From Methanococcus maripaludis (GTDB lineage Archaea > AGJL01 > Methanococci > Methanococcales > Methanococcaceae), in assembly GCF_002945325.1 (NCBI RefSeq), contig NZ_CP026606.1, positions 210,001-242,000 of the forward strand: a DNA stretch of 32,000 nucleotides, read 5' to 3'. The translations under genes were made by a program, and so were the position numbers. Position 1 is the stretch's first letter. Each line of letters starts with the position of its first letter. This document shows, in pieces, positions 1 to 18,922 of the stretch. Under the pieces are notes generated by a model. The model was not told where the DNA came from and ran no database searches. It saw only the letters and a program-made list of their open reading frames with translations.

Positions 1-127
1 AACTGGTCTGTAAAACACTGCAATTTTTGTTACTTGTGTGAACATTGACAGCTTTGACTTCTGATTTATGATAATCCTTTTCAAAATGTTCAACAGGCTT
101 TAAACAATACGGACAGATTTTAATCAA
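1..127 (-). CDS. partial hypothetical protein (first 42 aa, contains CxxC), continues beyond window start
   Basis: Not in the ORF track. Minus-strand TTG at 127-125, preceded by GAGGTG (138-133), reads MIKICPYCLKPVEHFEKDYHKSEVKAVNVHTSNKNCSVLQTS with no stop before position 1. Confidence 0.3.
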   Translation of the reverse strand, partial: MIKICPYCLKPVEHFEKDYHKSEVKAVNVHTSNKNCSVLQTS

Positions 128-562
128 AATAACACCTCAAAAAGAGGGGGAAATAGGAGTATTTAAAAAAAATCGATAGAGTTATCACGGGGGCGTATCT
201 TATTTTTCAACGATTGATAAATCTCAAAATAAGAATTAAAAAAATTTACTCTACCTGATTAAATAAAAGAGCTTATATTATTTATAATTTATTGAAATAA
301 CTATTTAAATTCGTTTTTGAAAGAATTGAAAGCTAAATTGTTTAAAAAAATATGCTGTATGAACCGGACTAAAAAACCGATGAAAACGCACAACCGGATT
401 ATTGAGTATATAAATAAAAAACGGAGTTACTGTTAACAATGCAAAATACCGGTTGCGGTATACTGTTAAATTTCAAGTCCAATAGCCTTAAAATTGAGCT
501 ATGAGAAAAAGAGCTATACTTTACCAATTGGTCTTTTGAGATATGCTTTAAAATCGTTTTAA

Positions 563-624
563 AAAGAAAGCGCAGAGGGAGGGATTTGAACCCCCGCTCC
601 CCAGTGGAGAACCGGATTTCAAGT
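563..624 (-). repeat. attL: displaced copy of the tRNA-Ser 3' portion (anticodon loop to 3' end plus 8 nt downstream)
   Basis: aaagaaagcgcagagggagggatttgaacccccgctccccagtggagaaccggatttcaagt aligns to 18493-18554 with 6 mismatches. Similarity stops exactly at the anticodon-stem/loop junction. Confidence 0.9.
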
Positions 625-2650: not shown

Positions 2651-2822
2651 AAAATCATATAGCAAAGTATATATATCATTATTCGTATAAACCGCTCTCC
2701 GTACTCCAAATCATATATATAATTATAATTAGTCTTCTTTACGGGAGAAAAGTATTTATATGAGTTTTTACAATATAAAAGTGTGAAAAGAAGTGCATGG
2801 AATTGCACAGGTGTATAATTTA

Positions 2823-3035
2823 ATGAACGAAGTTTTTAAAAATAACGAATTATATTCGTCAAAAGAAGTGTGTGAAACATTAAAAATTAGTATAAGAACC
2901 TTACGAAATTGGACTAAATTCGGAAAAATTGAATATCTTGAATTTAATGGAATTCATCGATTTCTTGGAAAAAATTTGAATGAAATTGCTGTAAAAAGAA
3001 ACTGTTTTATCAAAAACGGTGAGGTAGATGATTAA
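2823..3035 (+). CDS. excisionase/MerR-like helix-turn-helix DNA-binding protein
   Basis: The track starts at GTG 2793. ATG 2823 follows AGGTG. YSSKEVCETLKISIRTLRNWTKFGKIEYLEFNGIHRFLGKNL fits the Xis-type HTH pattern (L-x-x-x-E-x-x-x-x-L-x-h-S-x-x-T-h-x-x-W ... G-x-x-x-h). Its stop overlaps the start of the replication gene. Confidence 0.6.
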   Translation: MNEVFKNNELYSSKEVCETLKISIRTLRNWTKFGKIEYLEFNGIHRFLGKNLNEIAVKRNCFIKNGEVDD

Positions 3036-5544
3036 TGTACAATCAGAAACCTCAAAAATGGAAAATAAAAACAGTAATATATTTACATATACTAATATAA
3101 ATAATTTACGGTTAAATTTCCTAAAAAAACTTTTTCAAAAGCAGTTTGAAGAAATTGATGGAGAAAAATACTTCGAAATTCGTTTGTTGAATCAAAATGG
3201 AAAACCAAAGTTTTTCAAAGTTGAAAATTTAGAAGATTTTGAAAATATTGATTTTGAAGAATTTAAAAAAGAAAATGAAAGTTACAATATTTATTTTTCT
3301 CAAAATTTGAGAAAAAAAGAAAGTGGAAAGGCTGAAAATACCTATGACTGTTACTCGTATGTGGTTTTGGACTTCGATTTCAATTTAAAGGAAAAAAATA
3401 ATAATAAAGCTTTAGAATTTTGTAAAAATAAATACAAATCGATAAAAAAAGAATTGGGAATGGTTCCTTCGTTTTCTGTATTCACTGGACACGGACTTCA
3501 TTTATATTTTACTTTAGAAAAAAATACAAATTTTGAAAATATTAAAAAAATAAAAAATATTGTTGAAAATTTAAAAAATCCAAATTTAAAAGGAATTGAT
3601 AGTAAGGTGTATTCTCCAAGTCAGATATTGAGATTACCGTACTTTAATAACATTAAAAATCCAAAAGAAGTTAAAAAATCGATAATTTTAGAAGAAAATG
3701 ATATTGAATATGATTTTGAAGAATTAAAAGAAAATTTGGAAAAATTAACTCCAAAAACTTCTAAAAAAGAATTTAAAACTATTGAAACACAAGAAAAAGA
3801 AATTAAAAGAGATATTTTCTTTGAAACTTTTCTAAAAAATGAAGAATTAAAAAAAGAAATTGCAGAAAAAGACGGAATTCAAAAGAATGATATTTTATTT
3901 AAAAACTTGGCGTTTTATGTTAAGAATTTTCTTGATTTAGAAGAACTTGCTTATGAATTCGTTGAAGAATGTGGACATTCAACAAAAGAATTTGAGGGAT
4001 GGCTCAGAAAAGACTCAAAAGAAGTAAATTATAGAGAAATTAGAAATTGGGTTGATTATCACCACATTAGTGAATTGAAAAATCTAATAGAAAAACAATT
4101 GAAAGATAAATGTGAATTTTTTGATAATTATAGTATTGCTTATGTTTACGGTCGAAAAAATGATTTCAGATACTTAGTTTTTGATGAAAAAACTAAAACA
4201 GGGGCATCACATAAGAAAAACCAATTAGTTGATTTTTTCAAGGGCGAATCTACTAAATTGGGATATAAATTAGTTGATTTATTAAACATCCCCCAAATTA
4301 ATGAAGAAAATGATAAACCGTACACTAAATCGCAATTAAATAGAATGATCTTTGATAAACTTGAAGAAAAATTTGAAGATGAGAATTTCTTGACAAATGT
4401 CTATGATGAAGGCTATGAACCTTCCGATAAACGTTTTTTCGAGTATCTTGGAAACAAATACATTAATACTTACCGAGCAGGAAAATTTGAAAATTATTTT
4501 GAACCAAAAGAAAAATATAATTTTAAATATATTGAAAAATTATTAAGACATATTACTGGTGATGATGATGATTGTTATAAATATTTTAATAAATGGTTAT
4601 CATATATTTTAAAAAATCCTACTGATAAATTACCAACATCTTTGATTTTTAAAGGAACGCAAGGTATTGGGAAAGGTCGTTTAAGGGAATGGATTTTAAA
4701 TAATATTTTTGGAGAACAAAATATAGATCAGATTGAAGAAGATATGATAAATAATAAATGGGGCGATTACGTCAAAAATAATAGATTTGTGATCGTAAAT
4801 GAAATAAAAATCGATAAAAATGATAAAAAATCATCTAAAAAAATTAAAACTTATTCTACAGATAAAGATATCTCGATACAGCAGAAAAATAAACCTTTAG
4901 AGAAAATTAAAAATTATTCACATTGGATTTTCTTTTCAGATCAAGATAACCCCATGAATTTAGAAAAAAAAGATAGAAGACACACAGTTTTCAATCAAGA
5001 CGATAAGATACCATATGAAATTGTTGAAAAACTCTCACCAGAGCGAAATAAAGGATATTTGGAACAAGAATTGAAAGAATACGTTTCTTATTTGAGAACT
5101 TTGAATCCTACTCATATGGAAGTGTCTAATCCGATGATGACTAAAGCGAAAAAAGATCTATTTAAAGAAAATGAAAAAGAAATCTTTGAAGCAATTAATT
5201 ATGATATTTTCAATTTATGCGGAAAAACAATTGATTCCCTTGCTAATGCGTTAAAAAAACGAGAAAAAAATATAATAGAATATATCGTTGGAAAATTGAA
5301 TAATAATGGTTTATATTTAAGAGAAAAAAATTATAAAATTGAATTGTGGATCACAAAAGAAGGATTGGGAAAGTTGGATAACTTCACCAAATTGGAACAG
5401 ATTAATGAAAGAAATTCACTTTCAAAAATTGCGAAAAGACAAGATTATAAATATAGCACAATCCGTTCTAAGGATGATGTAATACCCTTTGAAAATCCAA
5501 AAAAAGCTATGGAAATTGAAATTTGGGATTTTCAGAATTCCTAA
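3028..5544 (+). CDS. replication protein: N-terminal primase-polymerase (AEP/PrimPol) fused to a D5/P4-type SF3 helicase
   Basis: AEP motifs: VVLDFDF (DxD), TGHGLHLYF (sxH), ILRLPYFNN. C-terminal region: IFKGTQGIGKGR (Walker A-like), RFVIVNEI (Walker B-like), KKDRRHTVF. SD GGTGAGGTAG lies directly upstream of ATG 3028. Confidence 0.8.
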   Translation: MINVQSETSKMENKNSNIFTYTNINNLRLNFLKKLFQKQFEEIDGEKYFEIRLLNQNGKPKFFKVENLEDFENIDFEEFKKENESYNIYFSQNLRKKESGKAENTYDCYSYVVLDFDFNLKEKNNNKALEFCKNKYKSIKKELGMVPSFSVFTGHGLHLYFTLEKNTNFENIKKIKNIVENLKNPNLKGIDSKVYSPSQILRLPYFNNIKNPKEVKKSIILEENDIEYDFEELKENLEKLTPKTSKKEFKTIETQEKEIKRDIFFETFLKNEELKKEIAEKDGIQKNDILFKNLAFYVKNFLDLEELAYEFVEECGHSTKEFEGWLRKDSKEVNYREIRNWVDYHHISELKNLIEKQLKDKCEFFDNYSIAYVYGRKNDFRYLVFDEKTKTGASHKKNQLVDFFKGESTKLGYKLVDLLNIPQINEENDKPYTKSQLNRMIFDKLEEKFEDENFLTNVYDEGYEPSDKRFFEYLGNKYINTYRAGKFENYFEPKEKYNFKYIEKLLRHITGDDDDCYKYFNKWLSYILKNPTDKLPTSLIFKGTQGIGKGRLREWILNNIFGEQNIDQIEEDMINNKWGDYVKNNRFVIVNEIKIDKNDKKSSKKIKTYSTDKDISIQQKNKPLEKIKNYSHWIFFSDQDNPMNLEKKDRRHTVFNQDDKIPYEIVEKLSPERNKGYLEQELKEYVSYLRTLNPTHMEVSNPMMTKAKKDLFKENEKEIFEAINYDIFNLCGKTIDSLANALKKREKNIIEYIVGKLNNNGLYLREKNYKIELWITKEGLGKLDNFTKLEQINERNSLSKIAKRQDYKYSTIRSKDDVIPFENPKKAMEIEIWDFQNS

Positions 5545-5580
5545 ATATACTTTTTTATTTTTTTTATATCGATTATTGAT

Positions 5581-6083
5581 TTGTAACCAGTTTTTTACGG
5601 GCTTAGAATGGTTATTTTCTAAAATGAAAGAATATCTTATCATTATTCTTTTTTCCAATATTTTGTAACCGGTTTGTAACCAGTTTTTGTTACATTTGTA
5701 ACCACTTTTTTGAGAACGTAGAGTGGTTATTTTTTAATTTAAAGACCATTTATTTATTTTAATTTTTTGTAACTAAAAATATATAATAAATTGATATTAA
5801 AAAAAATTAAATGTGAAAATACAAAATTGAATTATAAAATATATTTTTTAAAAAAAAAGTAATTTTCCCACTTTTTTGGTTACAAATTTTTTAAATCCCT
5901 AATCTTCCTTAGAATGGACTATACTCTTTAGAATGAACCCCTTTTTGTAACCATTTTTTGGTTACAAAATGGTTACAAAATGGTTACAAAAATTATAAAT
6001 TTTTTTAAATCCCTAATCTTCCTTAGAATGAACTTTACTCCTTAGAATGAACTCTTTTTTGTAACCATAATTTTGGTTACAAA
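5581..6083. repeat. iteron field (TTGTAACC / GGTTACAA) with two ~85-bp direct repeat units; candidate replication origin
   Basis: The 8-mer or a close variant occurs at 5581, 5663, 5674, 5697, 5767 (variant), 5878, 5945, 5960, 5971, 5982, 6059 and 6075. Repeat units at about 5885-5967 and 5998-6083 both read aatttttt(t)aaatccctaatcttccttagaatg...cttagaatgaac...tttttgtaacca...ttttggttacaaa. Confidence 0.75.
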
Positions 6084-6090
6084 TTTTAAT

Positions 6091-6239
6091 CGTGTCACGT
6101 TTTTATTTTTCTCCCCTTTCCCCCTCAAAATCAATAATTATAATAATATATAATAGTATTACAAAATTTAATTAAAAGAGTAAATATTAATATTATTAAT
6201 AACAATATTAATAATATAAAATCACGGATCCGTGTTTTT
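6091..6239. other. near-pure A/T tract (about 6128-6221) bracketed by two short GC hairpins, each followed by TTTTTATTTTTCT; candidate DNA-unwinding element
   Basis: cgtgtcacg+tttttatttttct at 6091-6112 and cacggatccgtg+tttttatttttct at 6223-6247. The sequence between them is almost entirely A/T (aatattaatattattaataacaatattaataatataaaat). Confidence 0.45.
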
Positions 6240-6287
6240 ATTTTTCTATAATTGTTCTTTCCACGAGAGGAAGAACAGGTGGTGGTA

Positions 6288-6590
6288 ATGTTAGGATTAG
6301 CAAGTAAGTTTGCAGAAAAAATGCTTTCAAATAAAGGACAATCCGTTCAAGTGACGGTTATTGAGGTTCTTGTTATTATTGTTACACTTTATGTTGCAAT
6401 GATTGTTTTAGGTTCATTAGAACCAGTTATGGATTCGGCAATTAATGATTCCAGCAACCTTGCAGGAGCGAAAGATTCCTTGACCACAAACACAGGTTCA
6501 GCATTTACAATTGGTGCAATCATACCTTTAATTGTGTTTGCGATGGCAGTTATCGGAGTTATTGCTAATGTATTCGGCGGACAGGAGTAA
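6288..6590 (+). CDS. small protein with two hydrophobic helices and a polar S/T/N linker; candidate spindle-virus-type (SSV1 VP1-like architecture) major capsid/membrane protein
   Basis: The track starts at TTG 6252. ATG 6288 follows GGTGGTGGTA. Sequence: MLGLASKFAEKMLSNKGQSVQ-VTVIEVLVIIVTLYVAMIVLGSLEPVMDSAI-NDSSNLAGAKDSLTTNTGSAF-TIGAIIPLIVFAMAVIGVIANVF-GGQE. It is the first gene of the membrane-protein block. Confidence 0.55.
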   Translation: MLGLASKFAEKMLSNKGQSVQVTVIEVLVIIVTLYVAMIVLGSLEPVMDSAINDSSNLAGAKDSLTTNTGSAFTIGAIIPLIVFAMAVIGVIANVFGGQE

Positions 6591-7013: not shown

Positions 7014-7340
7014 ATGAAGTGTTTTCCGATACCAGATGGAAAAATAAAAGCATTTCCGATAAAAACTTCTGAAAAGTCAAAAAAACCACAAAATAATGTT
7101 CAACAACCACAAGAACGAGTTATTGAACGAGTTATTGTTCCTGAAAGGATTATTGAACGACCAGTTGAAAGGATTGTTGAGGTTCCAGTTGAGAGGGTGG
7201 TTGAAAAACCAATATATCAGAACCGACAAAATCCAATGTCAAACGCGGTAAAAACAATTGGTTTGGTGATAGTTTCCACATATATCGTTTTATCCTTATT
7301 GGGTTTGGATTTGCCAACGTTAATTTCATTTTTTAGATAA
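7014..7340 (+). CDS. tail-anchored membrane protein with tandem (P)VER(I/V)(I/V)E repeats
   Basis: SD GGGGGCGAGG lies before ATG 7014. The central run ERVIERVIVPERIIERPVERIVEVPVERVVEKP is encoded at about 7113-7209. The C-terminal TM segment is AVKTIGLVIVSTYIVLSLLGLDLPTLISFF. Confidence 0.65.
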   Translation: MKCFPIPDGKIKAFPIKTSEKSKKPQNNVQQPQERVIERVIVPERIIERPVERIVEVPVERVVEKPIYQNRQNPMSNAVKTIGLVIVSTYIVLSLLGLDLPTLISFFR

Positions 7341-7539
7341 TAAATTTTATTTTTTTTTAGAAAAATATATTTATTAATTTAAATTTATAAAATAATACCA
7401 TTCTTTTTTCAATTTATATATATAAGATTATTTATTCATACATATATTAATAATAGTAATACTTATATATTATTAAGACTATATATATTTTCATTGATTT
7501 TTATGGAAAAAATGTTTTAATAAAAATGGTGAGGTGGAA

Positions 7540-7821
7540 ATGCTTGGAAGTCAGAAAAATATGTCAAAAACTCAAATTATATTCATTGGATTTGGGAATA
7601 TTTGTCTAACTCTTGTATATTGGTATATATTGGTTTTTATCGTTGGGCAACTTGATGTTGCTTTCTATCCATTAGTTAATGGATATACAACTTACATGGA
7701 ATGGTATCCGTATATCGTTTTATTAGTAAACTATCACCCGATCTTAATAGTTCTCTACTGTGTTGCTTGGATGTACTTTAGGGGAAACGAGGTCGATGCT
7801 TCAAGAAATGTGATTTATTAG
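7540..7821 (+). CDS. small integral membrane protein (2-3 TM)
   Basis: ATG 7540 follows GGTGAGGTGG (the track start GTG 7534 lies inside the SD). Hydrophobic segments: IIFIGFGNICLTLVYWYILVFIVG and YIVLLVNYHPILIVLYCVAWMYF. Confidence 0.6.
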   Translation: MLGSQKNMSKTQIIFIGFGNICLTLVYWYILVFIVGQLDVAFYPLVNGYTTYMEWYPYIVLLVNYHPILIVLYCVAWMYFRGNEVDASRNVIY

Positions 7822-7830
7822 GTGATAGAA

Positions 7831-8205
7831 ATGGGTAAGGCATGGGATATTATTATTGTTGTATTTATTTTCAATTTGGCGGTAACAGGAATTTCGAGTG
7901 TTTGTGATTATTTTGAAATTCCTTTTTCAAATCAAAGTTTTGTTCCAACTGGAAGTTCTGATTTGGTAAATCAGTTTGACAACACCTCAGAATCCGCACC
8001 CAATCAAGTGACGGAGAGTTCACTTTTTGGTGATTGGGCGTGGGCGGTTTCAATTGTTGGAACGTTATTTGGATTTTTAACAGGAAATTATAATATATGG
8101 TTAAGTTTAGGGGTGGATCCATTATTCGCGCAATTTCTGAGGGTAGTTTGCATGATGGCTAATGGATTTGCATTATTAGAAATTATTTCAAAGGTGAAAG
8201 TGTAA
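7831..8205 (+). CDS. membrane protein (N-terminal anchor plus C-terminal hydrophobic segments)
   Basis: ATG 7831 follows GGTGAT (track start GTG 7822). It abuts the previous stop at 7821. Hydrophobic segments: WDIIIVVFIFNLAVTGI and WAWAVSIVGTLFGFL. Confidence 0.6.
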   Translation: MGKAWDIIIVVFIFNLAVTGISSVCDYFEIPFSNQSFVPTGSSDLVNQFDNTSESAPNQVTESSLFGDWAWAVSIVGTLFGFLTGNYNIWLSLGVDPLFAQFLRVVCMMANGFALLEIISKVKV

Positions 8206-8217
8206 TGGTGGTGATAG

Positions 8218-8577
8218 ATGGTTAATGAAACGTTAACAATTATTAATAATACAAGAATAGCGACTTTGGATCCGCGTTTTCTCTCGGATCCTAATATCGC
8301 ACATCTAATAACTTATTTAATGACACAATTCCCCGAAATCCCTTCAATTATCTTATTTGGTGCTGGGATTTCGTGTTATATTGCAACAGGCGAAGATGAA
8401 ATGAAGACATTAATATTAGAATTTCTAATGATGTTTGTTTTTATATCAATCTTGGAAATTCCGCTTGATGTGATGGCGAGTACTCCAACGGCTTTGACGT
8501 TATTTGGGTTGAATTCGATATTTATAATTTTCATATTTGCGAAATTCTTGTTCTGTTTCACTGATACAGAACAATAA
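8218..8577 (+). CDS. integral membrane protein (about 3 TM)
   Basis: ATG follows GGTGGTGATAG. Hydrophobic segments: IPSIILFGAGISCYIA, LILEFLMMFVFISILEI and LFGLNSIFIIFIFAKFLFCF. Confidence 0.6.
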   Translation: MVNETLTIINNTRIATLDPRFLSDPNIAHLITYLMTQFPEIPSIILFGAGISCYIATGEDEMKTLILEFLMMFVFISILEIPLDVMASTPTALTLFGLNSIFIIFIFAKFLFCFTDTEQ

Positions 8578-8625: not shown

Positions 8626-11600
8626 ATGGCAATTAGAAGTGGAGAAACACATTATGATAGTGATGGAAATGCTTATAGAGTTAGTGGAAGTACAGCGACA
8701 AAAATTGGTGATTCTTCCGGTGCAAAATATAAAACTTCATCAATTAACGTGAAGGCAGGAAGTAATGGAAGTTCTTCAAAATCAAATTCAAGTTCTTCAA
8801 ATTCTACATCGATAGAATCCATAAAAAAAGATTTGGCAAGTGGAAAGCGTTCAACTGGTGCAAATTCAAACGTTGCAACGGCAAACGGAAAAGTTTTTCA
8901 AAATTTAAAAAATAAATATGGTCTTGATAAAGCGAAAGAACTCTACAATTCATATAAGAGAAATATTCTAACGGCAAAACAAGAATTAGAGAACGAGCAA
9001 AACGCAAAAATCCAAAAGGTAATTGAAAAAAGATATTCAAAAATTGGAACAAGCGGAAAAAATTACAAATCATCAATAAACGAAGTAATTCTTGATAAAG
9101 AAGGAAATATTGTCGCACTTAGAAACAAGAAATCCGGTCAAATTGTGGCAGGATCCGGTGTCGCTTACGGTGGACAAGCAGAAAAGAATTATAAAAAATG
9201 GGGATTATCAAAGCAATTAGATAATGCCATTGATAATGTCAACAATAAAAGAGAAAATCAATATAATCAAGATTTGAAGTTTACAAATTCGATAACAATT
9301 ACCCCATCAATGCACCAAATAGAAAAGGACGGAAAACTCTACATCTATGATCATAATGAAGATGGAACGTTTTCAACTTATATTATCAATAAAAATCAAT
9401 CAAGATACAATAATGGAACCATAGAGTTTACAGATAACGCTATTCTCGAAAACGCAGGAGAATATCAAAAAGATTACACGAAATTAAATGATATTCTTAA
9501 TGAGAGGTACACATCGGGAAACGAGTACACCGGAAGGATTTCCTTATTTGATATCGCAAAAGAACAGGGTGTATCACTTCAAATTGACCAACAAGGGGAT
9601 AAAACAGTTTTGTATGATTCCACAGGAACGATTTATGGAATTTACAATTCTGATGATATAGAAATTAAAGGATTGAATATTTACACCAAAAACGATGATT
9701 ATATTTATTCTTCTTCTAAATTAGAAACCGAAGGATTTGTAAATCCAGTAACTAAGGAAGAAATGAAATATTATGTAAATAATAAAGGAGAAAAACTAAT
9801 AATTAATAAAAAAGATGAAAATACTTACAAATATCAAGACGATATGGAACCAGTTGAGAAATTAAAACAATTAGAAATGGATATAATCTCAAACCCCAAA
9901 GAAACCATCAAAAGAGGAGTTTCATATTTGGGGGATAAATTCAATATAAATTCAAAATACACCGATGTTGCAAATAAGGGAGTCAATTATCTTAATGTTT
10001 TTGGAACGGAAGATGTTGGACAGATTGAAGGAAAAATAAGAAATATTGATACAAAAGATACGGTAACCACGAGAGGATTAAATACAGTTGGTGGAATAGC
10101 CGTTGGTCTAACTGATTTAACTGTTGGTACTGGTTACGCGATCTATAAGGATTCAAAAAATAATAGAAAAAATAATGTGGTTTTAACCCAAAAAGATCGA
10201 TATTTGGGAAATGCAGGAAGTTCTATTCTCTCAACACATGGAAAAACTATGGCGGTTGGGATGGTTCAGCCAGTGAAAAATCTAATTGTCGATAGGGATT
10301 TTTCTATTGAAAATACTCTTGGAACCGCTTTACTTGTTGCACCCGTTCTCAAAGGTGCTGGAAAGGTGGGAAAATCCGCAATTGCAAAATCCCCAAAACC
10401 AGTATTTGAAATTGCAATTGGAAAAAACATTGCAGGAAAGACAAATTATTTCGGTGTCAAAACCGGAGTTAAAACAAGTTCAAAAATTAAAATAAATACG
10501 TTAGAAGTAGGAACAAAATCAAAAACAGGATTTAACCAGTTGGCAAAAGAAAATATCAAAGTTGATAAAAATTCAATAAGTTTTGACGATGGAATTAAAT
10601 CCGATTTGGTTATAAAATCCACAAAAGAGAGAACGGTTAAAACTAATGATAAAATAACCAATGTGAAAAATGTAGTGGATACCGAAGGAAACAAATTATC
10701 CAAAAAAGTAGATATTTCAAAAACCAATGAAGGTTATAAAATCGTTGGAAATGTAGCAAAAAATGATAAATTCATCAATTATAATGTAGAAACAGGAAAG
10801 AACTTTATAAATCGAGATTTTTATAATTCTAACAAATATGGAACGAGATATAATTTCAATAATGTTAAAATATTGAAAGATAAATCAAAACTTTATGAAA
10901 AATCCGATTTGAATTCAAATAAGCATATAGATTTGAAAAAAATTAAAAATAAAGAATATATGAAAGAGAATTATCAAGAAGTTAAATTTGAAGAAAATAA
11001 AAACATCAAAGGAGATTTCTCCCATAATAAAAACTCAAATTTGTATTTAGAGAATTTGAGTGGGAAGAAAATCGTTGTTAGGGGGAATAAGGGATTTATC
11101 AAAAACGGAAAATCAAAATCTATAAATAATATAATCCAAATGGGTGAGAAATATCACCTCAATGAAATAACGGGAACAAAATATGGTGCATTTAAGAAAT
11201 TAACAAGAAATAATAAAGTTTATCAACAAAAAAAGACCGTTAAAAGTGACAATCATTTAAATATAAATGATATTAGAAATAATAAAATAAAACCAGTTGG
11301 AGAAATTGAAATCACCGAGTTTGGAACCAATGAAGGATTGAAAGGAAACAATATAATAAATCTTGGTGAAAATACCGGATACGTTTCTGAAATTCAAATA
11401 AATGGTGTTGGATTGTCAAAACACAATTTCAATACTCCAATGAAGAAAAACGGTTTTATTAAAAGAGATGGATTCAAGAAAACAAATCAGAAAATCTATG
11501 AATGGAAAGAAAACGGTCAAGGAACGAAGATAATAAATGAAGAAATAATTCAAAATAGAAATTTTGCATTGAAATCACAGAAAAGAAATTCAAATACAAT

Positions 11601-12324
11601 TAAATTCAATATTAAAAATCAAATTATCGAAAAAGAAGTTTCAAAAAGTCCAAAAGCACCAAAAACAAGTTTAAATAAAACATTTAAAGAAACTAAACCG
11701 ATTTCAAAATCAAAACAAACAATACAAGTTTCAAAAACAAATAAAAATAAAATAAATACAAAAATTACAACTAAAACAAAAACAAGAACTCCAACGCTTA
11801 TTAAAAGTAAAAAGAACATCAAATCAATTAATAATAATTTAAAAATCAAAAATCCGATGAAAAAATTAAATCCAAAAGGAAAAAAAATTAAAAATCCAAA
11901 TAACTTGAAATACCCAATCGGTATGGGAACAATGGGAATTGGTGTCAACTTAGGGTTGAATTCAAAAAATAGACAAAAGAATTTGGCAAAACCATTCTTA
12001 AATACAAAAGCAAATAATTTAAGAAAACAAAAGGTTTCAGATATTCAAAGAATGAAAGTGGGAACAACTTCCCCACAAATCCAAAGATTGAAAACTGATA
12101 CCATTCAGATTTCAGATATTGGAAGTTTGGGTGGTGTATTGATTGATAGAATCGATCCGGTCGATGTTCCAATTATTAAATCAATTTCAAGAAGTGACAC
12201 AAATCCAATTTCCACAAAAGGAAATTCAAAAAGAAAAAATAATAAAATTAGAAAAACTCAAAAAGAAATTAAAAATATTAAAAAATGGAATATCGGTGGA
12301 TTTGGATCCGCGTTTTTGAAATAA
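8626..12324 (+). CDS. 1232-aa structural/adhesion or DNA-transfer protein (function unknown) with a central Gly/hydrophobic region and a very Lys-rich C-terminal third
   Basis: ATG follows GGTGGTGATAA. No obvious signal peptide. The hydrophobic/Gly-rich stretch TRGLNTVGGIAVGLTDLTVGTGYAIY ... GTALLVAPVLKGAGKVGKS is encoded at about 10072-10396. The K/N/T-rich low-complexity region is encoded at about 11630-11915. Confidence 0.7.
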   Translation: MAIRSGETHYDSDGNAYRVSGSTATKIGDSSGAKYKTSSINVKAGSNGSSSKSNSSSSNSTSIESIKKDLASGKRSTGANSNVATANGKVFQNLKNKYGLDKAKELYNSYKRNILTAKQELENEQNAKIQKVIEKRYSKIGTSGKNYKSSINEVILDKEGNIVALRNKKSGQIVAGSGVAYGGQAEKNYKKWGLSKQLDNAIDNVNNKRENQYNQDLKFTNSITITPSMHQIEKDGKLYIYDHNEDGTFSTYIINKNQSRYNNGTIEFTDNAILENAGEYQKDYTKLNDILNERYTSGNEYTGRISLFDIAKEQGVSLQIDQQGDKTVLYDSTGTIYGIYNSDDIEIKGLNIYTKNDDYIYSSSKLETEGFVNPVTKEEMKYYVNNKGEKLIINKKDENTYKYQDDMEPVEKLKQLEMDIISNPKETIKRGVSYLGDKFNINSKYTDVANKGVNYLNVFGTEDVGQIEGKIRNIDTKDTVTTRGLNTVGGIAVGLTDLTVGTGYAIYKDSKNNRKNNVVLTQKDRYLGNAGSSILSTHGKTMAVGMVQPVKNLIVDRDFSIENTLGTALLVAPVLKGAGKVGKSAIAKSPKPVFEIAIGKNIAGKTNYFGVKTGVKTSSKIKINTLEVGTKSKTGFNQLAKENIKVDKNSISFDDGIKSDLVIKSTKERTVKTNDKITNVKNVVDTEGNKLSKKVDISKTNEGYKIVGNVAKNDKFINYNVETGKNFINRDFYNSNKYGTRYNFNNVKILKDKSKLYEKSDLNSNKHIDLKKIKNKEYMKENYQEVKFEENKNIKGDFSHNKNSNLYLENLSGKKIVVRGNKGFIKNGKSKSINNIIQMGEKYHLNEITGTKYGAFKKLTRNNKVYQQKKTVKSDNHLNINDIRNNKIKPVGEIEITEFGTNEGLKGNNIINLGENTGYVSEIQINGVGLSKHNFNTPMKKNGFIKRDGFKKTNQKIYEWKENGQGTKIINEEIIQNRNFALKSQKRNSNTIKFNIKNQIIEKEVSKSPKAPKTSLNKTFKETKPISKSKQTIQVSKTNKNKINTKITTKTKTRTPTLIKSKKNIKSINNNLKIKNPMKKLNPKGKKIKNPNNLKYPIGMGTMGIGVNLGLNSKNRQKNLAKPFLNTKANNLRKQKVSDIQRMKVGTTSPQIQRLKTDTIQISDIGSLGGVLIDRIDPVDVPIIKSISRSDTNPISTKGNSKRKNNKIRKTQKEIKNIKKWNIGGFGSAFLK

Positions 12325-14189: not shown

Positions 14190-14355
14190 TTAACGGAATG
14201 AATAGTGAGGACATAGGGACATAAGTCCTTAAATGATGGAAATATTGAATATTCCGCGAGTACTATTATATAGAGTCTATAATCATTGATGGAAAAAGTG
14301 GAAATAATGGAAAAATTTGATAAAATGTGGATTTAATTCTTCACAGGTGGTGATA

Positions 14356-15390
14356 TTGCTAAGAAAAAATGAATATGATTACTGGGGCTTGGGTGCTATT
14401 GTAAAGTCCCTCGCATTTTCTAAATTAAGAAATAATTTCGATTTCCACATTGCCGTTACCGGAATCGAAGGATCTGGAAAGTCCGCACTTGCAATCGCTC
14501 TTGCTCGATTTATGGATCGGAGTTTCAATCAAAACATGAATGAAAGAATGTATTTTTCAAATGAAGCACTTCCAGATTACTTGGATTTATTAAATGAGAA
14601 CGTTGAGAAAATTGAAAACGGTTTTGAGGGTGGAACGACCGTTATTTTTGACGAAACTCAAAATATTTTCAACAGGAGAAATGCACCTACTAAGGAAAAT
14701 AAAGCATTGCTCGAAGTAATCAGAACTCAAAGAATGGCAAAAATGTGTTGCATATATGCTACACCTAACGTTTTAGAATTAGAGAATTTTTTATCCAATA
14801 GAATGGATGTAATCCTTTTTTGTTCTTCCGATAAGAAAAAGGTCTATGGAGTCACGGATACAATCACTTATGATGGAAAAGTCTACAATGGATCAAAAAA
14901 TCTTCTTTTCCAAGAGATGAAAAATCTCGATCCTCGAACATTAAAGATGTCACCGGAGAACATCATGGCTCTGTGTATGGACGGAAAATTCAGATTTGAT
15001 TTCGGGGGAAAAACGGTCTATGATGATTATATATATAATAAATACTCGTTTATTAAAGCAAAGAAAACATCAGAATTCTTCAATAATACAAAGGAAAAAA
15101 TCAATAAAAATAAACCTATAAGGGAAGAAGAAAAGGAAAGTAAATATCAAATGCTTAATTTATCAATCAAGAAATTGACTGAACTGGAAAATGATTATAT
15201 TCCCCAACATTTAGAAAAAATTGAAGATGAAATGTTTGAAGACGATTTCATCAGTCAAAAAGCAATTGCCAATTGGTTAGACGTTGGAGATGGGGCAGTT
15301 TCAAAGAAGATTGATAGAAAGAAAATTGAAAAAGTTGCTTATCAAGGAAAAAAATATATTAAGGTCAAATATTTGAGGGATTTAATTTAA
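14356..15390 (+). CDS. P-loop NTPase (Zot/pI-like or packaging-type ATPase candidate) with C-terminal Xis-like HTH
   Basis: The track starts at TTG 14317. The in-frame TTG 14356 directly follows GGTGGTGATA. Walker A: AVTGIEGSGKSALA. Walker B: TTVIFDETQ, followed by IRTQRMAKMCCIYATPN. The C-terminus ISQKAIANWLDVGDGAVSKKIDRKKIEKVAYQGKKYIKV resembles the three HTH paralogues. Confidence 0.7.
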   Translation: MLRKNEYDYWGLGAIVKSLAFSKLRNNFDFHIAVTGIEGSGKSALAIALARFMDRSFNQNMNERMYFSNEALPDYLDLLNENVEKIENGFEGGTTVIFDETQNIFNRRNAPTKENKALLEVIRTQRMAKMCCIYATPNVLELENFLSNRMDVILFCSSDKKKVYGVTDTITYDGKVYNGSKNLLFQEMKNLDPRTLKMSPENIMALCMDGKFRFDFGGKTVYDDYIYNKYSFIKAKKTSEFFNNTKEKINKNKPIREEEKESKYQMLNLSIKKLTELENDYIPQHLEKIEDEMFEDDFISQKAIANWLDVGDGAVSKKIDRKKIEKVAYQGKKYIKVKYLRDLI

Positions 15391-18492: not shown

Positions 18493-18554
18493 AAAGAAAG
18501 CGCAGAGGAGGGGATTCGAACCCCCGCTTCCCAGTGGGAAACCGGATTTCAAGT
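18493..18554 (-). repeat. attR: repeat copy forming the 3' portion of the intact tRNA-Ser
   Basis: aaagaaagcgcagaggaggggattcgaacccccgcttcccagtgggaaaccggatttcaagt aligns with 563-624. Confidence 0.9.
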
Positions 18555-18587
18555 CCGGCGCCTTTGGCCAAGCTCAACCACCTCTGC
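18501..18587 (-). tRNA. tRNA-Ser (anticodon UGA), class II with long variable arm, no encoded CCA
   Basis: The reverse complement folds by hand: acceptor GCAGAGG/CCTCTGC; 3-bp D stem; anticodon stem CCGGA/TCCGG with loop CTTGAAA (anticodon TGA); variable arm TTCCC-ACT-GGGAA; T arm GGGGG-TTCGAAT-CCCCT; discriminator G. Confidence 0.9.
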
Positions 18588-18613
18588 TCGCACTTGTACT
18601 TAAGCGATTCAGC

Positions 18614-18621
18614 TATATATA
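18614..18621 (-). promoter_or_regulatory. TATA box for the tRNA-Ser gene
   Basis: tatatata lies 27-34 nt upstream of the tRNA 5' end on the minus strand. Confidence 0.5.
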
Positions 18622-18922
18622 CTTTTCTATTTTTCCGAGTTTACGGTATCGTAAAATTTGTGCGCAAACCATATTAAACGGGGTAGTGCGGATGTTTTTA
18701 AAACGGGTGTATATTTTTTTAAGTCGCATCTATTTTAGAATTTTTAATAGAAAATATATTAAAAAGTAAATACTCCAAATTCCCAAATACAAAAATCAAG
18801 TTACCCCCTAAAGCATTGTTTCAAAATCTTTTTTTCAAAGTGTTTATTTTAAAAAATAGTATCTATTATATATCTAAAAACCTAAATTATGAAAAGATTG
18901 AATAGAAACATGGGTGAAATTT

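Follow-up and report, generated by a model that had tools for sequence, protein, structure and literature searches.

The 32,000-nucleotide stretch of the Methanococcus maripaludis genome analysed here (contig NZ_CP026606.1, positions 210,001 to 242,000; hereafter the window) carries an integrated element of about 17.9 kb, and within it, at window positions 6288–6590, a gene for a 100-residue protein with two hydrophobic helices. We consider it probable that this gene, referred to below as the hairpin gene, encodes the major capsid protein precursor of a temperate, probably lemon- or spindle-shaped provirus related to the spindle-shaped Thermococcus prieurii virus 1 (TPV1) and to the A3-VLP of Methanococcus voltae. 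It is the relationship to TPV1 gp15 and gp20 and to A3-VLP that argues for a capsid protein, and not the outcome of profile tests against the capsid families of the spindle-shaped viruses SSV1 and His1. The features of the element are given below in window positions, with E values after family names; homologues are those found in the M. voltae region, in metagenome contig L017 and in L020, a provirus of M. maripaludis (JACDUO010000002).

563–624: attL, a 62-nucleotide direct repeat that copies the 3′ part of tRNA-Ser, 90% identical to 18493–18554.
1590–2603, + strand: tyrosine recombinase (integrase) of 337 residues; Pfam Phage_integrase, 3.5e-26; phrog_1, 2.2e-35.
2793–3035, + strand: small HTH_17 or excisionase-like protein; Pfam HTH_17, 3.3e-6; excisionase PHROGs.
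3028–5544, + strand: primase-helicase fusion (replication protein) of 838 residues; DUF5906, 6.5e-15; phrog_1156 (DNA primase), 3.7e-20.
5560–6230: AT-rich region with GGTTACAAA-type repeats and two 87-nucleotide direct repeats; candidate origin, a function presumed from the sequence and a repeat scan.
6288–6590, + strand: candidate major capsid protein precursor of 100 residues; leader 1–17 (...NKG↓Q, the arrow marking the candidate cleavage site), helix 1 at ~20–50, linker with an N-D-S sequon, helix 2 at ~67–97.
7014–7340, + strand: 108-residue protein whose sequence has a VER-type repeat and a C-terminal hydrophobic anchor.
7534–7821, + strand: 95-residue membrane protein of the conserved cassette; homologues in M. 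voltae, L017 and L020.
7822–8205, + strand: 127-residue membrane protein of the conserved cassette; homologues in M. voltae (E = 6e-20), L017 and L020 (E = 2e-25).
8218–8577, + strand: 119-residue membrane protein; M. voltae homologue, E = 2e-15.
8626–12324, + strand: 1232-residue protein, in a position like that of the large open reading frame (ORF) of TPV1-like viruses, by comparison with the preprint PMC12934983.
12873–13181, + strand: HTH_17 or MerR-like DNA-binding protein, by family scan.
14317–15390, + strand: AAA-type ATPase of spindle-virus type, 357 residues; phrog_5484, 5.6e-7; phrog_38691, 6.6e-7.
18493–18554: attR, a 62-nucleotide direct repeat inside tRNA-Ser(TGA), which occupies 18500–18587 on the − strand.

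The two 62-nucleotide repeats lie about 17.9 kb apart and bound an element integrated in tRNA-Ser; the corresponding site is empty in a congeneric genome, G003: window positions 1–290 and 18497–18686 correspond there to G003:C2 100408–100699 and 100945–101134, so placed that the two flanks of the element stand about 250 bp apart. The empty site and the repeats together therefore define the block between the repeats as a mobile element. To its right lie host genes, among them a translation-factor-like gene and an aspartate dehydrogenase. Besides the hairpin gene, the element carries four genes for small membrane proteins (7014–8577). The first of these, 7014–7340, found no family in Pfam or PHROG scans, and the 1232-residue protein encoded at 8626–12324 had no match in Pfam.

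An earlier note on the window had described 6288–6590 as an ORF of about 100 residues in which a polar leader precedes two hydrophobic helices separated by an S/T/N-rich linker, and the ORF and its layout are as described. From the ATG at 6288 to the stop at 6590 the product has 100 residues, its segments are identical to those quoted, and a Kyte-Doolittle scan places two hydrophobic blocks at residues 17–49 and 68–100. An alternative TTG start at 6252 is possible and would add 12 residues; the ATG at 6288 is favoured by an 88%-identical metagenomic homologue (P0001), which likewise begins MLGLASKF, and immediately 5′ of this ATG stands GGTGGTGG, a strong ribosome-binding site. With a 22-sequence alignment, AlphaFold2 predicts a two-helix hairpin (residues 3–51 and 59–97) at a mean predicted local distance difference test (pLDDT) score of 77.6; prediction from the single sequence gave a pLDDT of 66.7. 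The linker contains one N-D-S sequon. The gene had also been said to open a membrane-protein operon directly after an origin-like region. Its position bears this out, 3′ of the repeat-rich, AT-rich segment 5560–6230 and 5′ of the membrane-protein genes; however, about 420 bp devoid of ORFs precede the next gene, at 7014, and the hairpin gene may therefore be a transcription unit of its own.

Searching 1.84 billion representative proteins with HMMER returned 11 relatives of the hairpin protein, with E values from 4.7e-44 to 6e-4, and a profile search of representative proteins returned 17. The relatives are all 90–165 residues long and share a core in which a hydrophobic helix ending in (I/V)LGNLEP-like residues is followed by an S/T/N-rich linker. 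The second helix begins (I/L)(I/L)P(I/L)(I/V), and the C-terminus is often glycine-rich and basic. An N-x-S/T sequon occurs in the linker of 18 of the 22 family members. The named members are WP_013179885 of M. voltae A3 (35% identity; other M. voltae strains have near-identical proteins), MMKA1_p-00130 of M. maripaludis KA1, which is encoded on the 12-kb plasmid record AP011527, and P0003, a chromosomally encoded M. maripaludis protein from provirus L020. Far from being widespread chromosomal membrane proteins unlinked to mobile elements, as the earlier note had allowed they might prove to be, members were found by the family profile in three of 40 species-representative Methanococcales genomes, one copy in each, and every copy whose surroundings were examined has a mobile-element context. 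Further members occur on metagenome contigs.

The neighbours of the hairpin gene recur with it. Homologues of the ATPase, of the 95- and 127-residue membrane proteins, of the N-terminus (50–100 residues) of the large ORF and of the integrase lie near the hairpin gene in other elements; at least two of these genes adjoin it in the M. voltae region, in L017, in a second metagenome contig, L018, and in L020, and all but the integrase do so in L017 and L020. On the two metagenome contigs the hairpin gene stands in two tandem copies that encode identical proteins (L017:4099–4851 and L018:10001–10753). The replication modules beside these shared genes vary, with a primase-helicase in the window element, an MCM protein in L018 and a Rep-type protein in L020. 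A constant morphogenetic module joined to swappable replication genes is also the reported pattern of TPV1-like and other Thermococcales spindle viruses (PMC12934983).

The relationship to TPV1 was found through the ATPase. In a tblastn search with the window ATPase, the only matches among 50,697 phage and archaeal-virus records were to the AAA ATPase gp20 of TPV1 (BLASTP, 1.3e-9), and no match appeared among 72,556 plasmid records at E ≤ 1e-3. Of the two PHROGs that the window ATPase matches, phrog_38691 is TPV1 gp20 and phrog_5484 is the family of SSV1 B251 (5e-101) and His1 ORF16 (2.8e-62), which gp20 also matches. Directly compared with His1 ORF16, the window ATPase aligns over 112 residues beyond the P-loop (BLASTP, 4e-5), and a C-terminal helix-turn-helix, as in ORF16, is weakly indicated (E = 0.01).

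The ATPase match led us to test the membrane proteins of TPV1 with the family profile, which identified gp15 (YP_005271237), a protein of 112 residues annotated as 'membrane protein'. The alignment of the two by hhalign has a probability of 96.1% (E = 3.1e-9) and extends over 76 columns, taking in both helices and the linker. P0003 aligns with gp15 in BLASTP (5e-8), and both gp15 (2e-6) and gp20 match provirus L020. Among the TPV1 membrane proteins, gp15 is also the best fit to the His1 capsid profile, with a score of 20.0 over 59 columns against at most 15.4 for the others. As in the family, helix 1 of gp15 is directly preceded by Arg/Lys-Gly and followed by an N-x-S/T sequon, and the C-terminus is glycine-rich and basic. 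According to the preprint PMC12934983, TPV1-like viruses have in their core two lectins, an AAA ATPase, a large disordered ORF and a transmembrane cassette to which the alpha-hairpin capsid protein belongs; the text consulted does not name gp15. The TPV1-like 'Sethviridae' of this preprint resemble the window element in encoding a tyrosine integrase, small membrane proteins grouped in a cassette and a very large ORF, and in counting a primase-helicase module among their options. The host, in contrast, is Thermococcus for TPV1 and a mesophilic methanogen for the window element, and the gene order differs, the window hairpin gene following the origin region at a distance of 8 kb from the ATPase gene.

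In M. voltae, the hairpin gene directly adjoins a gene for a PAV1-ORF375-like ATPase (phrog_22963) and therefore lies within the A3-VLP cassette region (PMC3543421). The A3-VLP provirus has been described as related to spindle-shaped viruses (PMC5862659), so that the novelty which the earlier note attached to a spindle-shaped virus of a methanococcal host was overstated. Between the M. voltae region and the window element, whose hosts belong to the same genus, homology covers the hairpin protein and three membrane proteins as well as the ATPase, the integrase and the N-terminal part of the large ORF. They differ in their replication modules and in the phrog_22963 ATPase, which is present in M. 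voltae and has no counterpart in the window element; furthermore, the M. voltae region consists of two or more tandem elements, whereas the window holds one clean 17.9-kb element with att repeats. The A3-VLP particles were reportedly described by Wood et al. in 1989 and the provirus region by Krupovic and Bamford in 2008, and Krupovic et al. in 2014 are said to have given the hairpin genes of both TPV1 and A3-VLP a capsid role.

Taken together, the window provirus, the A3-VLP of M. voltae, the M. maripaludis provirus, the 12-kb KA1 'plasmid' and several metagenome contigs make up a small lineage that has the hairpin protein and the ATPase in common with TPV1. Record AP011527, of 12,084 bp, also encodes a 1195-residue protein that is similar, at its N-terminus, to the primase portion of the window replication protein (E = 5e-11), and a ParE-like toxin; a homologue of the ATPase was not found on it. 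Instead of an ordinary plasmid, the record may represent an episome of viral origin.

Against a capsid role stand the direct comparisons with the capsid families of SSV1 and His1, which the earlier note had proposed as a check. The Pfam model of the Fuselloviridae capsid proteins VP1 and VP3 (PF06281, VP1_VP3) matched neither the window protein nor its relatives at E ≤ 1, nor anything in six frames of the genome at E ≤ 10, and the His1 capsid model (PF25665, His1_capsid) matched neither the window protein, its relatives nor any genome frame. Both models strongly recover their own proteins, SSV1 VP1 at 2e-19 and VP3 at 2e-38. When the family profile was aligned by hhalign with a profile of 18 relatives of His1 VP21, the probability was 2.6%, rising to 25% once gp15 was added to the family. 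Scored with the His1 profile among decoys, the window protein fell below the decoy median. A Foldseek search with the hairpin model returned nothing significant from the PDB or BFVD, a helix hairpin being a generic fold. As for TPV1, pairwise BLAST of the window protein with gp15 yields no alignment, and the link between them is therefore transitive, through the family. Genes for ConA-like lectins, core in TPV1-like viruses, were not detected by Pfam among the ORFs of the element, and BLASTP against TPV1 gp22 and gp23 found nothing.

The decoy comparison run with the family profile gave a more differentiated picture. His1 VP21 scored 20.5, SSV1 VP1 19.1 and VP3 17.0; the maxima were 14.5 among 110 two-helix host ORFs of 60–170 residues and 14.1 among 15 membrane proteins of His1, SSV1 and PAV1. 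The alignment with VP21 runs over both helices, and that with VP1 extends from the known cleavage region onward. In the reverse comparison, the sole members above all decoys were P0009 (24.9) and P0002 (23.9). On these scores the likeness of the family to VP1 and VP21 is suggestive, not demonstrated. Of the spindle-virus capsid architecture that had been proposed, the layout thus stands, with two helices joined by a short, polar, glycosylatable linker, while membership in the SSV1 or His1 family does not. Two hydrophobic helices are common to the window protein, SSV1 VP1 and VP3 and His1 VP21, as is an S/T/N-rich linker that contains an N-x-S/T sequon. A proline marks the start of helix 2 in the window protein (IIPLI), SSV1 (LVPLF) and His1 (LLPLL), and a glycine precedes helix 1 in the window protein and in SSV1 VP1 (TKG↓E). 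The VP1 sequence quoted in the earlier note agrees with NC_001338 in all essentials, apart from PVIVSQV, which had been given as PVVVSQV. A gene for a B251- or ORF16-type ATPase accompanies the capsid gene in SSV1 and His1 and the hairpin gene in the window element. The systems differ in that the His1 genome is linear and has a protein-primed polymerase, and in that the SSV1 integrase is of the split type.

Other searches added little. A sequence profile search of the PDB found nothing relevant, and Pfam and PHROG scans of the window protein gave only weak, unspecific matches (Yip1; phrog_11608, E = 0.004). The phrog_11608 family, of unknown function, gave a near-full-length match and was dropped as a lead, as it does not occur in His1, SSV1, PAV1 or TPV1. 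By tblastn against phages the window protein met only a clostridial phage holin, non-significantly, and back-translated pattern scans of the genome and viral contigs found nothing. An hmmsearch of all ORFs of His1, SSV1 and PAV1 with the family model produced no useful ranking, His1 ORF34 coming first and VP21 third; the bias correction of HMMER suppresses hydrophobic matches of the hairpin type. The idea that a PAV1 capsid gene might be orthologous to gp15 by position was likewise given up: PAV1 ORF121 scores 11.7, which is not above the decoys, and the BLAST likeness between PAV1 and TPV1 is confined to the lectin proteins.

That the protein would be cleaved from a leader, as VP1 is, had been part of the original proposal, and a site after Gly17 is plausible in view of a pilin-like leader and of a peptidase gene in a related provirus. 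The host genome has ten genes whose products bear class III (DUF361, PF04021) signal peptides, the type found on EppA substrates in Methanococcus, with N-termini such as MKFLEKITSKKG↓QIAMELGILV and MFKKLYSKKG↓QVSMEMGILV. The window protein begins MLGLASKFAEKMLSNKG↓QSVQVTVIEVLV and shares eight of 12 residues with one host leader, including K-G-Q. Like an archaeal type IV pilin, it thus has a leader (KFAEKMLSNKG↓Q, compare host MKFLEKITSKKG↓Q) followed by a hydrophobic helix. In at least ten of the 22 family members (K/R)-G directly precedes helix 1, and in most others the residue there is G or A. TPV1 gp15 reads RRRRG↓S at this point, and SSV1 VP1 (NC_001338) LTKG↓EATNIG, at the junction where mature VP1 starts.

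The candidate peptidase belongs to the A24, or prepilin peptidase, family. In provirus L020 a 150-residue protein (L020:8240–8692) matches Peptidase_A24 at 3.3e-15, above the Pfam cut-off, and its gene is followed first by the ATPase gene and then, as the second gene downstream, by the hairpin gene. A weaker relative of this peptidase (E = 2e-4) is encoded in the M. voltae element region, at ~38200–38550 of the joined G005:C2 region. M. maripaludis relatives have an A24 peptidase of their own near the ATPase and capsid genes, and so, probably, does M. voltae. The window element has no A24 peptidase gene, and would rely on EppA or FlaK of the host, which has two A24 genes, one of them beside pilin genes. 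It is conceivable, though we hold it only tentatively, that the capsid proteins of this lineage, and possibly those of spindle viruses generally, SSV1 VP1 included, are pilin-like precursors with a class III-type signal that are matured by prepilin (A24) aspartic peptidases. We found no proposal in the literature searched that prepilin peptidases mature spindle-virus capsid proteins, and this is the novel part of our interpretation.

In outline, the precursor would enter the cytoplasmic membrane with its basic leader inside and would there be cut after Gly17 (NKG↓QS) by a prepilin-type (A24) peptidase, a step suggested by the leader. The linker would face outward, where N-glycosylation at N-D-S would be possible. 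Mature hairpins of about 83 residues would then be built into the capsid lattice during budding of the virions from the membrane, the route described for SSV1.

The same leader lends itself to another explanation, the main alternative to a capsid protein, in which the product is a pilin-like subunit of a mobile element, cut by prepilin peptidase and built by host machinery into a filament such as an adhesive or transfer pilus, the element itself being an integrative plasmid. The resemblance to host DUF361 leaders, down to K-G-Q, fits this, as do the UPF0333 label that the Joint Genome Institute (JGI) gave to one homologue, the A24 peptidase genes of the related elements and the family member on a 12-kb record deposited as a plasmid. 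Prepilin peptidase and pilins are, moreover, found on thaumarchaeal integrative-conjugative elements (PMC6563490), and the Aeropyrum conjugation pilin 8dfu was among the non-significant Foldseek matches (E = 6.2). However, the Class_IIIsignal model (PF04021), which finds the ten host pilins, does not match the window ORF; the window protein has its glutamate at +9, not +5, and has a second, C-terminal hydrophobic helix that is foreign to pilins. Its gene lies in a mobile element in which no pilus-assembly genes were detected, family scans of the element finding no FlaI/PilB-type ATPase, TadC/PilC, VirB4 or VirD4. The homology of the family, in addition, leads to TPV1, a bona fide virus, and the ATPase was without a match in the plasmid records. 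We therefore consider a pilin improbable. A conjugative pilin of the VirB2, TrbC or CedA1 type was down-weighted because VirB4, VirD4-type ATPase and VirB6-like domains are absent from the element and the protein has no sequence match to pilins in the PDB; an integrated plasmid of the pT26-2 type, known from Thermococcales and Methanococcales, was likewise down-weighted. The comparison with this type covered the ATPase, the counterpart of which among the pT26-2 core proteins would be t26-14p; the 72,556 plasmid records, among which the presence of pT26-2 is unconfirmed, gave no match to it.

The hairpin protein might instead belong to a virus without being its capsid protein, serving as a minor envelope or membrane-remodelling protein, or in egress or superinfection exclusion. 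The capsid role of TPV1 gp15 is a presumed one, the element encodes several other small membrane proteins (7534–8577), and the weak matches to holin-like phage proteins, although non-significant, would suit such a function. Yet the hairpin with an S/T/N linker is unique to the window protein among the small membrane proteins of the element, and of these only its family profile places VP21, VP1 and VP3 above all decoys. The gene apparently forms an expression unit of its own, and its tandem duplication in relatives is as expected for a protein needed in bulk. A non-capsid function thus strikes us as unlikely. Finally, the region is AT-rich and short ORFs are frequent there, as would be the case if 6288–6590 were a chance frame with no product; yet homologues 30–90% identical to it, from several genomes and metagenomes, keep both the architecture and the neighbours, and this conservation and the strong ribosome-binding site make the explanation close to untenable. 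With such homologues, the ORF is more than a chance one.

To our knowledge, very few viruses of methanogens have been characterised, and for Methanococcus the A3-VLP of M. voltae is the sole candidate with spindle-shaped or oblate particles. The window provirus is a compact, apparently intact relative of A3-VLP with clean att sites, in a completely sequenced genome, and Methanococcus is a genus with good genetic tools. The provirus helps to define the small lineage that shares its hairpin protein and ATPase with TPV1. Its most interesting lead is the pilin-like leader which, together with the virus-borne A24 peptidase of relatives, offers a testable mechanism for the maturation of spindle-virus capsid proteins; if this mechanism is true, it would reveal which protease processes VP1 and would connect capsid assembly with the pilin export route.

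Several minor observations concern the borders and the large ORF of the element. Window positions 551–624, which comprise attL and several bases on its left side, have 100% identity with G001:C1:565929–566002 and G003:C6:22041–22114, in two other species of the genus, while attL agrees at only 90% with the tRNA-Ser end of the host itself, at attR; from this comparison, the element may have brought its att sequence along from a different host species. Near-copies of the left flank occur in the same genome, with window positions 1–353 and 465–556 resembling G000:C1:475514–475862 (92%) and 202136–202227 (90%), so that a repeated sequence adjoins the integration site. Conservation of the 1232-residue protein is limited to its first 50–100 residues in M. 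voltae, L017 and L020, the remainder being unrelated, which fits a predicted division into a constant anchoring part and a variable part, perhaps for host recognition. A direct repeat links the end of the gene for this protein (12269–12316) with the gene at 8218–8577 (8233–8280), and both copies end in an identical GGATCCGCGTTTT. Close to the hairpin gene on its upstream side, at ~6228, is GGATCCGTGTTTTT, which resembles this repeat end.

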